In this document: in pieces, positions 52,078-60,006 of the stretch
Layout of the letters: every line of letters starts with the position of its first letter
How positions within the stretch are numbered: position 1 is the stretch's first letter
Source: an uncultured Pirellulaceae bacterium
GTDB taxonomy: Bacteria; Planctomycetota; Planctomycetia; Pirellulales; Pirellulaceae
Reading direction: 5' to 3'
NCBI GenBank assembly: GCA_964477385.1
Contig: CAYZHQ010000012.1
Span: 21,180 to 85,179 of the forward strand
Length of the DNA stretch: 64,000 nt
Program-made: the position numbers and the translations under genes
The notes under the pieces: model-generated
Seen by the model: only the letters and a program-made list of their open reading frames with translations
Databases searched by the model: none
Told to the model about the DNA's origin: nothing

Positions 52078-53139
52078 ATGACAGAGCCCCTTCAGCGATC
52101 AGAATTTGCGGCCCCGCAACCGGCCATCGAAACGCCCCTGGAACGCTTGCGTTTTGTGCGCCAGATCGTCGCTGCCGAAGCCGCTGCGCTGCGGAATGTT
52201 GCCAATCGGCTGTCGCCAACAGCGGTCCGTGCAGCGGAATGGACCGCCGCCACCGAGGGCATGGTCGTGGTGACGGGGATCGGCAAAGCGGGTTTGATCG
52301 GTCGCAAATTGGTCGCGACGCTGGCCAGCACGGGGACCCCGGCTCAGTTCTTGCATCCCTCCGAAGCGATTCACGGGGATTTGGGCATGGTGCGCAGCGA
52401 CGACCTTGTCTGGGCACTTTCCAACAGCGGCCGCAGTGATGAAGTGCTGCAGATTTTGCCCATGTTGCGGCAGCAATCCGCCGGCGTCGTGGCGCTAACA
52501 GCCGACGATCGCAATCCGCTGGCGGTCGCGGCCGATTGTGTGGTCAGCTTAGGGCGTCATGCCGAGGCGTGTCCGCTGGGGCTGGCTCCGAGCACCAGCA
52601 CGACGGCCATGTTGGCGGTGGGTGACGCGATCGCCTTGCTTGCCAGTCGCCTGCGAGGGTTTTCTCGTGACGACTTTGCCCGTTTTCACCCCGGCGGCAG
52701 CTTGGGAAAAAAAATGACCAGCGTGGAGCAACTGATGCGACCGCTGGCGGAGTGCCGCATCGCGTCCCAGTCCGCCACGATTCGCCAGGCGATGACAGCC
52801 ACCGCCGCGCAAGGCCGGCGCACCGGTGCGGTGATGCTGGTCGACGAAGTCGGACGACTGGTCGGCTTATTTACCGACAGCGATTTGGCCAAGTTGTTGG
52901 AGCGACGTAACGAACATCAATTGGATCAGCCGATTGACAATGTCATGACGCGCGACGTTCAGGCGACGCAAGCCGGAACGCTGCTGGGGGATGCGATTGC
53001 GGTCTTGGCCGGACGAAAAATCAGCGAGCTGCCTGTGTTGGACGAGCTGGCTCGTCCAATCGGCTTGCTGGATATCACCGACATCGTTTCCCTGTCCGAA
53101 CCGCAACGCGCTGTTGTGCCGCTGAAGCCCCGCCACTAG
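52078..53139 (+). CDS. kdsD: Arabinose-5-phosphate isomerase (KpsF/GutQ, SIS + 2 CBS)
   Basis: TGIGKAG, STGTP..LHPSEA.HGDLG, APSTST, FHPGG.LG, CBS pair. Confidence 0.93.
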   Translation: MTEPLQRSEFAAPQPAIETPLERLRFVRQIVAAEAAALRNVANRLSPTAVRAAEWTAATEGMVVVTGIGKAGLIGRKLVATLASTGTPAQFLHPSEAIHGDLGMVRSDDLVWALSNSGRSDEVLQILPMLRQQSAGVVALTADDRNPLAVAADCVVSLGRHAEACPLGLAPSTSTTAMLAVGDAIALLASRLRGFSRDDFARFHPGGSLGKKMTSVEQLMRPLAECRIASQSATIRQAMTATAAQGRRTGAVMLVDEVGRLVGLFTDSDLAKLLERRNEHQLDQPIDNVMTRDVQATQAGTLLGDAIAVLAGRKISELPVLDELARPIGLLDITDIVSLSEPQRAVVPLKPRH

Positions 53140-53189
53140 TCGCCTGTACGCCCGTTTTTTCCACGCGAAGATGTACGACGAGACCTTGC

Positions 53190-53729
53190 ATGAAGAATCC
53201 AGTACTAGCCACCGACGAGGAACTCGCCGCCGGCATCGAGTTGATCTTGTCGGACGTCGATGGCGTCCTGACCAACGGACAAATCATCTACGACAACAGC
53301 GGCGTGGAAATCAAAGCCTTCCACGTGCGTGACGGATTGGGGATCAAACTTTGGCAACGGGCCGGATTGCACTTCGGAATCCTGACCGCGCGCAACAGCC
53401 AGATCGTGCGGATCCGAGCAGCCGAGCTGGGTGTCGAAATCGTGCGGCAAGGATTCGAGCAAAAATGGCCCGCCGCCGCCGAGGTGATCGCAGGGTTGGG
53501 GCTAACGCCCGAGCAAACCTGTTATATCGGTGACGACCTGCCTGACCTGCCGGTCCTCCGCCGAATCGGTTTGCCGGTGGCCGTGGCGGACGCATGTCAC
53601 GATGTTCGCAATGGTGCAATCTGGACCACGCGAGCGGCGGGTGGTTGCGGGGCGGTGCGTGAAGTCATCGAGCGACTGCTGCGCGCCAAAGATCGGTGGG
53701 AAGAAGTCGCTGCGATCAATCCAAATTAG
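53190..53729 (+). CDS. kdsC: KDO-8-phosphate phosphatase
   Basis: DVDGVLT, FHVRDGLG, YIGDDLPD, GGCGAVRE. Confidence 0.95.
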   Translation: MKNPVLATDEELAAGIELILSDVDGVLTNGQIIYDNSGVEIKAFHVRDGLGIKLWQRAGLHFGILTARNSQIVRIRAAELGVEIVRQGFEQKWPAAAEVIAGLGLTPEQTCYIGDDLPDLPVLRRIGLPVAVADACHDVRNGAIWTTRAAGGCGAVREVIERLLRAKDRWEEVAAINPN

Positions 53730-53755
53730 TTCGAACTTTCGACCCGAAACGTTTC

Positions 53756-56700
53756 ATGTTTGCCAAGCTGTTGAACTACTCGATCGCATTCGCCGTGTTG
53801 GCGGTCGTTGCGCTCGTGTACCAGTTCACCATTGTGGCTTGGCTAACACCTCCCGACATCTCGTTTGCCGCGACGGTGAATGTTCAGCAGACGCACGAAC
53901 CGTCCCAGCTGGAACAGATGTTTCCCGAAGGATCGTGGCAACGCACGGCTCGCAAACGGTTGTCGATCAAGGACCAAGGGGTGGTCCTGTTTAGCGAACG
54001 CAAGCAGATTACCCCCAGTCAATGGCGGGTGTGGCCGGTAACGGTGATCATGCAACGAGAAGGCCGTCCGCCGATTGTTTTAGATGCCGCCGAAGGAGCC
54101 GACGTCACCTTCGCCGAATCGCTCGATGTGTTGGGCAGCCAGGCGCCGCCGATCAAAAGTGGTCAACTGGTCGGCAAGGTCGTGATCCGTTCCCTGCCAG
54201 CCGAACCAGGTGGAAAGATTGCACCGAGTGATCAGTTGGAAATCGAAACGCGGGACGTGGGGATCGACAATCGTCGCGTTTGGACCAACGAAGCGATTCG
54301 TATGCGGTGGGGCGAGAGTCGCCTCGAAGGCCGCAACCTGACGATTCGGCTGGCCGGTGGCGGGGACATTCCAACTTCGGGAGGGCAATCCCCGCTGTCG
54401 ATTCTGGACAGCATGGAACTGATTTACCTCGATCGTTTGCAGTTGCCCGTGCCAGCACAAGGTCGGATGCAGCGCAACAGCAACGCAAGCCTGCCACCCG
54501 GCATCGCCTCCATCAAGTGCAAGGGGCGTGTGACGTTTGATTTCGCCACCGATATCTTGAAATTGCGTGATTCGGTGCGCATCGAGCACAAGCCGCATGT
54601 TGGCCCGAGCGATCGGATTGAGTGCGACGTCGTGACGATCGAATTCAACAATCCACTCTCCTCCGAGCTGCCACGTCAGACCGCCGATGATTGGTTGCGT
54701 CGGATCGAAGCGGAGGGGCAACCGGTCATCGTCCGTTTGCCCACCGTCGGGGCCGAAGCGGTTGCCGAGACGGTGCTGTATGACTCCGAACAAGGGGCGC
54801 TCCATGTGCAAGGCAGCGCCGGAGTGCGGATTGCCTACCAAGGGGTGAACTTCCAAGCCACCGATTTCGTCTACACCTTTCCCGTCGAAGACCCGCTCCG
54901 TGTGGGAACCCTCGACTGCAAGGGAAGCGGTTTTCTTGATTTTCAGATGGACGACGAGTTGGCGATTCAAACCATTCGTTGGACCGAAGGCGTCCGCTTA
55001 AAACCGTTGCCCGAAGCCGACTTGCATGAACTGCAGGTCGACGGAAAGGTGACCGCAACCCTCAGCGATGGCGGCAAGGTCCTCGCCGACGCGCTGCGGT
55101 TCGTGTTTCGTCAGTTACCGAATCAGCAACCGGTCCAAGCAGCCCAAAGAAGTCGACCAGCGAATGGCGTTGAGGATGGACCGGCCGGCGAAAAGGGGCT
55201 CGTTGCACAGTTTCGCCCCGAACGAGCATCCGCGACGGGTAATGTGATCTTCGACACTTCGCTGATGTATGCCGAGACCGGTCTGTTGCAGTTGTTTTTC
55301 GATGTTCAAACGCCAGTTACCAAGGCAGGGGCCGAAGCAGGTGTCGCACTGACTCCCGCCTCCGGTGCAACGAAAAGGTTTTGGGTTCGGCAGCCGGGCG
55401 AAGGCGAGCAGACGGTCACGCCGGTGGCACGACCGCGACCAAGCTTGATGGCAAAAACGATCCACGCCAATCTCACCTTGCGTGGACGCGAGATCATCGG
55501 CAGTGACTTGACGGTCGATGGGGATGTCCGTTTGAGGCATCAGATGACAACACCGCGGGCAACTTTGCCGCTGGCCGTTTCGGGTGACAAGATGCGTTTG
55601 CTGAGTAAGGATGGCCACGACACCATCCAGATCCAAGGCAACGCACAGCCGGCTCGGTTTGACCTCGGGGATGGCTATTTTGTCGGGCCGCTAATTTTAA
55701 TCAGCACCAGCGAAAACTATGTCTGGATCAATCAAGCGGGGGAATTTCAAATGCCGACTGCCGTGTTGCCGCAAGGCAATGCGACGGCGGCCATGCGGTG
55801 GGCCGAGCCACCTCGCTGTGCTTGGTCGGGCACGATGGGATTTGACGGACAAACGGTGGAACTTTCCGGCGGCGTGCGTCTCTCGGCGGAGATGCTGACG
55901 GGGATCGAACAGACTCCATGGGACGTGGTCGCGACCGGCGATCGGATGTTGGTGACGCTCGGTACGGCGATTGAAATCAAAGATCCCGCAGCGATGCGCA
56001 GCGCGACGATCGAAGACATCTCGCTGCTCGGTTCCGACACCCAGCCGGTATTCTTGACCGCTGATCAAGCCGATGCCAATCACAACCTACAGGCTCGGCA
56101 TGTGCTCAGTGGGCCCAAGCTGTCGCTGTTGCCGCAAGCTGGCCAACTGAAGGGACCCGGGCCGGGGTGGTATCGACAGTGGGCGCGCACTTCGCCGACC
56201 GGACCGTTTGCCAGCTTCGTGCCCCAAGGGGGACTGATGGGGACCCACCTCGTGTTTAACGAAAGCATGGAAGGCAATTTGGAGAAACAAGAGTTGCGGT
56301 TTCAGCGTGGGGTCCGGATTGGTGTCAGTCCGGTAGCCTCCTGGGAACACGGTTTTGACGCCATCCAAATGGACGCCTTGGCAAGTGGACAAGCAACGAT
56401 CGATTGCCAAACGCTCAGGCTGGCGCAGGCACCTCAGGCGGCCCAGGATCGGCAGCCTTTGGCTAGGCCCTTGACCGGCAATGCTCCCGCTGGCGCCGGG
56501 CCTCTGCAGGCCGGAGCGTGGGAGGTGGAAGCGCTTGGCGGCGTCGTCTTCCGGGCCCGTAACGAGAATGGTCTGTTCGATGTGACGGGAAATCGCGCGT
56601 CGTACGCCGCGGTGAAAGACCTGTTTATTGTCGAAGGGGACGGCCGCCGGCCGGCGACGCTGAAGCAGACGCAGCCAAACGGCTTGCCGGGCATGAACAT

Positions 56701-56809
56701 CGCACTGGGATACTTAAAAATCCGGCCCCAAACGATGGAGATCGACTCCGAGTTGCAAATGGCGTCGCCAGGCACCCTGCCAGCGAACATGCGGTCCCGC
56801 CGCAACTGA
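53756..56809 (+). CDS. Large membrane-anchored beta-rich protein, OstA/LptC-LptA-like repeats
   Basis: N-terminal TM helix; repeated A.G.V-type segments (IEAEGQPV, ASATGNVIF, VEALGGVVF..TGNRASY); directly follows kdsD-kdsC. Confidence 0.6.
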   Translation: MFAKLLNYSIAFAVLAVVALVYQFTIVAWLTPPDISFAATVNVQQTHEPSQLEQMFPEGSWQRTARKRLSIKDQGVVLFSERKQITPSQWRVWPVTVIMQREGRPPIVLDAAEGADVTFAESLDVLGSQAPPIKSGQLVGKVVIRSLPAEPGGKIAPSDQLEIETRDVGIDNRRVWTNEAIRMRWGESRLEGRNLTIRLAGGGDIPTSGGQSPLSILDSMELIYLDRLQLPVPAQGRMQRNSNASLPPGIASIKCKGRVTFDFATDILKLRDSVRIEHKPHVGPSDRIECDVVTIEFNNPLSSELPRQTADDWLRRIEAEGQPVIVRLPTVGAEAVAETVLYDSEQGALHVQGSAGVRIAYQGVNFQATDFVYTFPVEDPLRVGTLDCKGSGFLDFQMDDELAIQTIRWTEGVRLKPLPEADLHELQVDGKVTATLSDGGKVLADALRFVFRQLPNQQPVQAAQRSRPANGVEDGPAGEKGLVAQFRPERASATGNVIFDTSLMYAETGLLQLFFDVQTPVTKAGAEAGVALTPASGATKRFWVRQPGEGEQTVTPVARPRPSLMAKTIHANLTLRGREIIGSDLTVDGDVRLRHQMTTPRATLPLAVSGDKMRLLSKDGHDTIQIQGNAQPARFDLGDGYFVGPLILISTSENYVWINQAGEFQMPTAVLPQGNATAAMRWAEPPRCAWSGTMGFDGQTVELSGGVRLSAEMLTGIEQTPWDVVATGDRMLVTLGTAIEIKDPAAMRSATIEDISLLGSDTQPVFLTADQADANHNLQARHVLSGPKLSLLPQAGQLKGPGPGWYRQWARTSPTGPFASFVPQGGLMGTHLVFNESMEGNLEKQELRFQRGVRIGVSPVASWEHGFDAIQMDALASGQATIDCQTLRLAQAPQAAQDRQPLARPLTGNAPAGAGPLQAGAWEVEALGGVVFRARNENGLFDVTGNRASYAAVKDLFIVEGDGRRPATLKQTQPNGLPGMNIALGYLKIRPQTMEIDSELQMASPGTLPANMRSRRN

Positions 56810-56904: not shown

Positions 56905-57441
56905 CTATTCGGGCGGGCCGGTGATCATGTTCACCCCGACGACGAAGAAGACCGCCAAGCCAATGACCGCTAACAGGATCAGCAGCAGCACCCACCACGG
57001 CAGCCCAGCGCCCTGCAGCTTTTTCTGCAGTTGCTGGTCGTGCTCCATGTCGACTTGGGCTTTATCCAGCAGCGTGTGCCCCAGCAACGTCCGTTCGGCT
57101 TCGGTCTTATACGCTTGATGCCTTTCGCCTGTTTGCGTGTTGAAGCCGCAAGCTAGGCAGAGAATCGCTCCTGGTTTCATCTCCGCGGTACAGCTCGGGC
57201 AGGTGGCTCCCTGGCGATGCTTCAGACCTTCCTCTTCAAAAAGGTCGTCCAAGCCGCCTGGAAAACCGCTTGCCGCCGAGGCCTGCGGTGCGGATGCCGC
57301 ACGCTGGCTTCCGCTGGACGCCGCAGCGGCCGCAGGAATGGATAGCGGTTGTTTACAAGCTGGACAGCGAACGTTTTTGCCGGCCAGCTCATTTTTGACC
57401 TGAAGGGTTTTTCCGCACGCGCAAGTGACGGGAATAGGCAT
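56905..57441 (-). CDS. Double zinc-ribbon protein with C-terminal TM helix
   Basis: MPIPVTCACGK...CPAC and CPSC...CLACG, hydrophobic C-terminus. Confidence 0.85.
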   Translation of the reverse strand: MPIPVTCACGKTLQVKNELAGKNVRCPACKQPLSIPAAAAASSGSQRAASAPQASAASGFPGGLDDLFEEEGLKHRQGATCPSCTAEMKPGAILCLACGFNTQTGERHQAYKTEAERTLLGHTLLDKAQVDMEHDQQLQKKLQGAGLPWWVLLLILLAVIGLAVFFVVGVNMITGPPE

Positions 57442-57995: not shown

Positions 57996-58313
57996 ATGGC
58001 GACTGCCACGAAAGCGAAATCGAAGATTCGGCTGCAACCCATGGGCGAGCGCGTTGTGGTGCAGCGCGACGAAGGCGAATCGACCACCGCCGGCGGCATC
58101 GTGCTGCCCGATTCGGCCAAGGAAAAGCCCGCTCGTGGGACGGTCATTGCCGTTGGCACCGGGAAATTGCTCGACGACGGCAGTCGTTCGACGCCGCAGG
58201 TCAAAAACGGCGAAAAGGTTCTGTTCACCAGCTATGCCGGCGAAACGGTTGAAATCGATGACGTCGAGTACCTCTTGATGCGTGAAGACGACATTTTGGC
58301 TGTGATTGAGTAG
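57996..58313 (+). CDS. groES: Co-chaperonin GroES
   Basis: LQPMGERVVV, TTAGGIVLPDSAKEKP, REDDILAV; GGAGG RBS. Confidence 0.98.
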   Translation: MATATKAKSKIRLQPMGERVVVQRDEGESTTAGGIVLPDSAKEKPARGTVIAVGTGKLLDDGSRSTPQVKNGEKVLFTSYAGETVEIDDVEYLLMREDDILAVIE

Positions 58314-58380
58314 TCCGAGGCGTCGTCCTGCTGCTCATTTCCCGGCTTTCCACTCCACTAACCATCCACTGATTAAGTAA

Positions 58381-60006
<1,626 letters not shown>

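Follow-up and report, generated by a model that had tools for sequence, protein, structure and literature searches.

The locus described here lies in a 64,000-nucleotide stretch of DNA (the window) from an uncultured Pirellulaceae bacterium (GCA_964477385.1, contig CAYZHQ010000012.1, positions 21,180 to 85,179) and consists of three consecutive genes: kdsD (52078-53139, +), kdsC (53190-53729, +) and the gene for a giant protein of 1,017 residues, P0001 (53756-56809, +). The kdsD-like gene encodes a 353-residue arabinose-5-phosphate isomerase of the KpsF/GutQ family with SIS and two CBS domains (TIGR00393, 246 bits; cut-off 203.7), and kdsC a 179-residue 3-deoxy-D-manno-octulosonate (Kdo)-8-phosphate phosphatase (TIGR01670, 153 bits; cut-off 107). 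The giant gene begins with an ATG at 53756, leaving a gap of 26 bp after the kdsC stop at 53729. An earlier reading of the sequence (the original prediction) had described this order, as well as the lack of lptB directly downstream, and both points hold: the open reading frames (ORFs) and family scores agree with the former, and 3′ of the giant gene we find an opposite-strand gene for a zinc-ribbon membrane protein, lptB being located on another contig (C65). We find that P0001 probably joins an LptC-like domain and five LptA-like units in a single chain that would carry lipopolysaccharide (LPS) across the periplasm.

Sequence anatomy of P0001

P0001 contains a single hydrophobic stretch. The 19-residue Kyte-Doolittle average peaks at 2.46 over residues 10-28 and is at most 1.6 in all other windows, which bears out the single N-terminal transmembrane helix originally proposed. 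The helix, residues 2-30 in the structural model (53759-53845, +), is a predicted inner-membrane anchor, and its Tyr22 is invariant in 67 aligned sequences. It is followed by an LptC-like β-jellyroll (residues ~64-232; 53945-54451, +), recognized by structural alignment to LptC and by N-terminal PF06835 matches in relatives, and then by the LptA-like units.

The alignment of the giant protein was widened from 9 to 29 to 67 rows, and all 67 were needed: the 29-row profile matched only a spurious epimerase among PDB sequences (E 0.06), and the 67-row profile gave LptA as its sole match (8onu, E 5.6e-5). Among 35 relatives, PF03968 matches are found at scattered positions in 17 (14 at or above the cut-off) and PF06835 matches in 5, all inside residues 47-219 (one above the cut-off). 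Atlas neighbours are planctomycete clusters of ~1,000 residues in which 15-46% of members carry PF03968, and the nearest named relatives, from Roseimaritima (58-65% identity), are labeled ‘hypothetical’ or ‘OstA-like’.

To delimit the repeats we used an LptA-unit hidden Markov model (HMM) seeded on seven stand-alone LptAs of ~200 residues from other lineages of planctomycetes and then iterated on loci that were not in the 67-row alignment, a pool that held one orthologue of the same class. This HMM finds five repeats in P0001, one of them weak, and nothing significant before residue 245. When the five segments were compared by hhalign with a 39-row unit profile free of rows from the window, unit 1 (residues ~249-395; 54500-54940, +) scored 99%, unit 2 (~404-513; 54965-55294, +) 96%, unit 3 (~560-666; 55433-55753, +) 97%, unit 4 (~684-812; 55805-56191, +) 97% and unit 5 (~830-1005; 56243-56770, +) 98%; reversed segments scored 0.4-1.9%. 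Unit 2 is the weakest, its hhalign match covering 72 columns and its HMM matches being weak, and it carries a disordered insertion at 458-481. Unit 3, which also has a unit-HMM match, follows a low-confidence linker (522-558). The first domain scores only 3-6% against the unit profile and is therefore of a different type from the LptA units.

Strands alternate between hydrophobic and polar residues along the chain (lag-1 autocorrelation −0.43, a value reached by 0 of 2000 shuffles). This amphipathic pattern is present in all five LptA-like units (0-8 of 2000 shuffles) and is weaker in the LptC-like domain (89 of 2000). Cys255 and Cys290 of unit 1 (window 54518-54625), conserved in 61 and 62 of the 67 rows, respectively, are a possible disulfide. 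Cys688 (55817-55819) is found in 50 of the 67 rows and Cys884 (56405-56407) in 60. In one database entry, P0016 (1,186 residues), a KdsC haloacid dehalogenase-type domain is fused ahead of the giant protein, possibly a sequencing artefact.

Predicted structure

An AlphaFold2 model of full-length P0001, built from the 29-row alignment, has a mean predicted local distance difference test score (pLDDT) of 80 and shows the N-terminal helix followed by β strands throughout, with unmodeled stretches at 35-47, 203-212, 458-481, 522-558 and 898-918. VIA re-alignment of this model, which covered 964 chains, ranked Vibrio cholerae LptC first (6mjp_C; Z 11.5, root-mean-square deviation (rmsd) 3.0, 123 residues aligned, on model residues 64-223), followed by 4b54 and 3my2. 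LptA and LptH chains were placed on residues 72-231, 236-398, 329-451 and 544-724, among them LptA 7zax on 544-706 (Z 8.2, rmsd 3.6). Unit 1 is matched by LptH 4uu4 (Z 8.6, rmsd 3.1, 126 aligned).

A second model, of residues 680-1017 (units 4-5), has a pLDDT of 88 and a predicted template modelling score (pTM) of 0.83. Against 48,161 representative chains its top eight matches are LptD N-domains, LptA, LptC and LptH (Z 10.4-13.5), with E. coli LptA 2r19_A matching unit 5 (Z 13.0, rmsd 2.6, 130 aligned), and Foldseek ranks E. coli LptA first. Foldseek with the whole model returned LptD and long β proteins with template modelling (TM)-scores of at most 0.2 and rmsd values near 40, and is unusable alone. 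The β-taco chains of TamB/AsmA are not among the fold matches listed, and the sequence repeats point to LptA. That the giant protein is itself LptD can be rejected: it has no C-terminal outer-membrane β-barrel (PF04453), its C-terminal 338 residues model as jellyrolls, and the planctomycete LptD profile matches a separate gene on contig C186, as LptD is a separate gene in all 46 genomes of the family.

Conservation and gene order

The 67-row profile finds the giant gene in all 46 family genomes, as one match in 40 and as two pieces in six (in three the pieces share a frame, in two a contig break separates them, and one is a probable frameshift). The last of these, in G320, splits between units 4 and 5 at a short tandem repeat, and its second frame lacks a signal peptide; it is probably an assembly frameshift, not a natural split. 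In a sample of 301 genomes from the phylum the same profile finds the gene in 59, including all 29 genomes of the class.

In three sets of loci that overlap one another, kdsC and/or kdsD were located upstream of the giant gene in 27 of 28, 28 of 29 and 26 of 27 cases, counts drawn from related genomes and hence not independent. Of the three exceptions, two begin at a contig end or inside the gene and the third has kdsD-kdsC in its wider flank. In the class-level set kdsD alone was detected within the 1.5-kb upstream flank of 24 of 29 loci. A kdsD-kdsC-giant gene contig (L022, 34% identity) is also present in an archaeal (Nitrosopumilus) metagenome-assembled genome; it resembles Pirellulaceae loci, and its archaeal assignment is probably bin contamination. 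At one locus (L029) an ATP-binding cassette (ABC)-ATPase-like match to lptB lies less than 8 kb from the giant gene.

Downstream of P0001 in the window, the convergent zinc-ribbon gene (56905-57441, −) encodes 178 residues that carry two zinc-ribbon motifs and, at the C terminus, a hydrophobic helix; elsewhere, it neighbours the giant gene in just the two closest Roseimaritima loci. Beyond it, groES-groEL (57996-60006) were recognized by sequence. A promoter and terminator scan gave no signal clearly above shuffles.

Other Lpt components and the search for separate LptC and LptA

The host genome, 97.9% complete, contains lptB (C65), lptF (C33), lptG (C58), lptE (C85) and lptD (C186), together with the lipid A-Kdo genes lpxB, lpxC, lpxK and waaA. 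lptD was missed by Pfam and recovered with a planctomycete profile at E 3.6e-129; it is present in 46 of 46 family genomes. The lptF and lptG genes sit among unrelated genes. In the lptB locus (G000:C65:24526-27321, −; L199), lptB is directly downstream of a gene that looks signal-peptidase-I-like by its motifs, with no lptA upstream. LptD (G000:C186:1276-4530, equivalent to L198:777-4031, −) has an additional β-rich segment of ~100 residues after its signal peptide, jellyroll-like by eye, then a Pro/Gln-rich linker and the jellyroll and barrel typical of LptD. Family members retain this extra segment, which could add to the length of the bridge at its outer end.

Neither a separate lptC nor a separate lptA was detected in the host. 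Pfam PF03968, PF06835, PF13100 and PF04453 give no match in the genome, and with the LptA-unit HMM run on every open frame of 80 residues or more, only the giant ORF is significant (E 2.8e-17; next E 0.084). Three frames considered as small LptAs were set aside: C2:66782-67372 is an opposite-strand frame within a 5,336-residue ORF, and C56:9291-10787 (E 0.084) and C239:3258-3524 (E 0.18) are not significant, the last two being judged by eye only. A search of the 46 family genomes, with a unit alignment that included four segments of P0001, gave 138 unit matches, which were placed by their coordinates: the giant gene accounts for 129, the N-terminus of LptD for 8 and a sequence broken by stops for 1; none is a stand-alone LptA. 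The same alignment does recover stand-alone LptAs of ~200 residues in other lineages, including one outside its training set (G040:C36, E 3e-24).

Unit number across Planctomycetota

The length of the protein encoded after kdsC differs among lineages, and the number of LptA units differs with it. The loci compared were taken from best matches and show a pattern, not a census. In the five genomes checked with a protein of ~350-560 residues (G124, G040, G151, G011 and G077), one LptA unit is detected, and each of these genomes also has a separate LptA of ~200 residues; stand-alone LptAs are here those among the matches listed in the phylum search, 585 weaker matches lying outside that list. Proteins of ~630-660 residues in families f27 and f72 have three units, a protein of 877 residues in G057 has four, and those of ~1,000-1,190 residues in the host’s class and family f32 have five where countable. 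In G211 (L192:5674-8996, −) two genes follow kdsC, one for a long jellyroll protein and then a 391-residue frame whose start is signal-like and in which two LptA units are found, possibly an intermediate form.

Four loci in distant lineages (L187:4894-8118, L193:5281-8397, L272:2030-3259 and L273:3503-5047) have, by eye, cleavable-signal-like starts in place of the membrane anchor, which suggests a soluble LptC end in these proteins. In a search of 1.84 billion representatives, the best 150 matches are 457-1,355 residues long with 3-10 matched stretches. Among 20 of these that were looked up, one is named as the LptC of a planctomycete (832 residues) and four are clusters labeled LptA with no organism given.

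Predicted docking on LptD, proposed mechanism and estimated bridge length

A complex of units 4-5 with LptD residues 58-480 was predicted with weak support: the interface score ipSAE is 0.52, compared with 0.00 for the best of three controls, the runs agree in at least 88% of contacts and the partner pLDDT is 76. The mark that this ipSAE passes is reached by 116 of 157 solved pairs and 2 of 215 mismatched pairs, and at 0.60 or below by only 18 solved pairs and both mismatches. The pass may be due to resemblance to jellyroll pairs already known.

By analogy with LptC, the N-terminal helix and first jellyroll would sit on LptB2FG at the inner membrane. ATP hydrolysis by LptB would then drive LPS acyl chains into the hydrophobic face of the jellyrolls, whose amphipathic strands are described above, and, as in the E. 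coli system, LPS would slide along the five covalently joined units. The last unit may pair with the N-terminal jellyroll of LptD, in line with the predicted complex, and LptD with LptE would insert LPS in the outer membrane as in E. coli. With its length fixed, such a bridge would operate at sites of close membrane apposition.

For E. coli, bridge length is treated in PMC6164715 and PMC8824477, and a bridge with one LptA is given as ~16 nm in a 21-nm periplasm (PMC5575297). Adding four more units at an estimated 4-5 nm each to this value, we estimate a bridge of roughly 32-36 nm for P0001, including LptF/G and LptD. The planctomycete periplasm is described as variable in width, the inner membrane being attached close to the wall at crateriform structures (PMC5394234); we found no measured width in the literature. 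Because the chain length is fixed and the periplasm variable, the bridge would act at apposed zones, with enlarged regions out of reach. Adaptation to a wide planctomycete periplasm, as originally suggested, is unsupported, being neither shown nor needed; a bridge of the estimated length would span only the apposed zones.

Discussion

Our analysis indicates that in P0001 a predicted membrane anchor is followed by an LptC-like domain and five LptA-like units, and that this one protein likely takes the place of LptC and of the LptA oligomer as the LPS bridge. We favor this one-chain LptC-(LptA)5 arrangement because the sequence profiles, two predicted structures, the gene position, the lack of a detectable separate lptC or lptA and the presence of every other Lpt part all speak for it. 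The concatenated LptC-(LptA)n jellyroll of the original prediction is thus well supported, with n = 5. P0001 belongs to the Lpt jellyroll superfamily and is a canonical member of neither the LptC nor the LptA family.

Like the LptC of E. coli and Vibrio (PF06835; 3my2, 6mjp_C), P0001 is encoded directly after kdsC and has a single N-terminal hydrophobic helix followed by a β-jellyroll. Those proteins are, however, single domains of ~190 residues whose genes are followed by lptA-lptB, whereas P0001 is about five times longer, has five more jellyrolls and is not followed by lptA-lptB. With LptA and LptH (PF03968; 2r19, 2r1a, 4uu4, 8onu) it shares an LptA-type profile and fold in five units, but LptA and LptH are soluble monomers that form head-to-tail oligomers, while the P0001 units are covalently joined, predicted to be membrane-anchored, and have insertions within and between them. 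The Anabaena LptA Alr4067, the subject of a 2015 study by Hsueh et al., is said to be elongated with several repeated units; it is reportedly soluble and accompanied by a separate LptC, unlike a membrane-anchored chain of the two. LptD (OstA/Imp) shares the fold in its N-terminal jellyroll, and databases label P0001 relatives ‘OstA-like’; the P0001 model nevertheless lacks a β-barrel, and LptD is encoded separately in the host.

An engineered LptC-LptA fusion likewise holds both proteins in one chain, and it binds LptB2FG and delivers LPS to LptD in nanodiscs in vitro in an ATP-dependent manner (PMC12065857). It is an artificial, single construct studied in vitro; P0001 is natural, has five units and is conserved class-wide. 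A natural one-chain LptC-LptA bridge was not described in a full-text literature search whose coverage excluded most subscription journals, and the precedents are this engineered fusion and the automated ‘OstA-like’ labels. For planctomycetes, the accessible text of PMC3422733 reports LptD and makes no mention of LptA or LptC, and that of PMC8871954 calls the Lpt system ‘largely reduced’.

Several observations weigh against a one-chain bridge. Pfam and NCBIfam assign no family to P0001, PF06835 falling below its curated cut-off, and the repeated OstA-like segments named in the original prediction are invisible to them, though real by the LptA-unit profile. Because Pfam misses P0001 and lptD too, its blanks for lptA and lptC prove little. 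The unit profile itself did not find unit 2 in most family genomes, and in 1 of 46 it failed to find any of the giant gene; with sensitivity so limited, a divergent small LptA could escape detection. lptB is unlinked. P0001 might be an extended LptC that reaches LptD only with the help of a separate, highly diverged LptA or another adaptor; lineages with shorter post-kdsC proteins do keep a separate LptA even though that protein already has one LptA-type unit. We consider this unlikely, given that no stand-alone unit appeared among the family-wide matches, that the host’s open frames yielded no second significant HMM match and that a direct, if weak, pairing of units 4-5 with LptD is predicted.

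On the structural side, MORN-repeat sheets also score Z 8-10, and up to 9.7 against units 4-5, below the Lpt chains. Low-rmsd matches are confined to residues 64-513 or 530-1016 with none across the linker, the full-length pTM is only 0.59 and residues 522-558 are unmodeled. One continuous groove is therefore not shown: of the fold originally expected, the jellyroll domains are present in both models, and a single groove running across 513-560 is not demonstrated. The chain could then be hinged or processed, with the helix cleaved, or with two halves (LptC plus units 1-2, and units 3-5), or with part of it serving as a spacer or tether and not as a lipid track. Besides the low-confidence linker and the modest pTM, the signal-peptide-like starts seen by eye in some distant relatives and the two-gene arrangement of G211, whose second gene has its own signal-like start, would fit such a protein. 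The invariance of Tyr22 in the helix, the amphipathic strands kept in all five units and the full-length ORFs kept throughout the family make it quite improbable.

The least likely alternative is a jellyroll bridge for a cargo other than LPS, such as another glycolipid, lipoproteins or phospholipids. The cargo cannot be read from a shared fold, a connection between Lpt parts and lipoprotein sorting has been made (PMC12065857), and Borrelia, which lacks LPS, is reported to have an Lpt-like system (PMC10353723). Against this alternative stand the association of the giant gene with Kdo genes throughout the phylum and the lipid A-Kdo genes of the host, in which no other protein is a candidate for the missing LptC and LptA.

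If P0001 is the one-chain LPS bridge that we propose, the gap behind the ‘largely reduced’ planctomycete Lpt system (PMC8871954) has an explanation, in that LptC and LptA appear to persist in fused, diverged form. For E. coli, PMC5575297 and PMC6164715 give as open questions the number of LptA units across the periplasm and whether the bridge has to assemble and come apart; a natural one-chain bridge with countable units makes both testable. A covalent bridge would be without the LptC-LptA and LptA-LptA interfaces targeted by thanatin-type peptides, and would offer one stable particle for determining the structure of the whole periplasmic LPS track. We also raise, tentatively, the possibility that Planctomycetia have no free LptA oligomer and depend on one essential chain of fixed length from LptB2FG to LptD, which doubles as a ruler or tether that sets the distance between inner and outer membrane at export sites, in cells with an otherwise variable periplasm. 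If this were true, the series of one, three, four and five units would predict the minimum periplasm width of each lineage.

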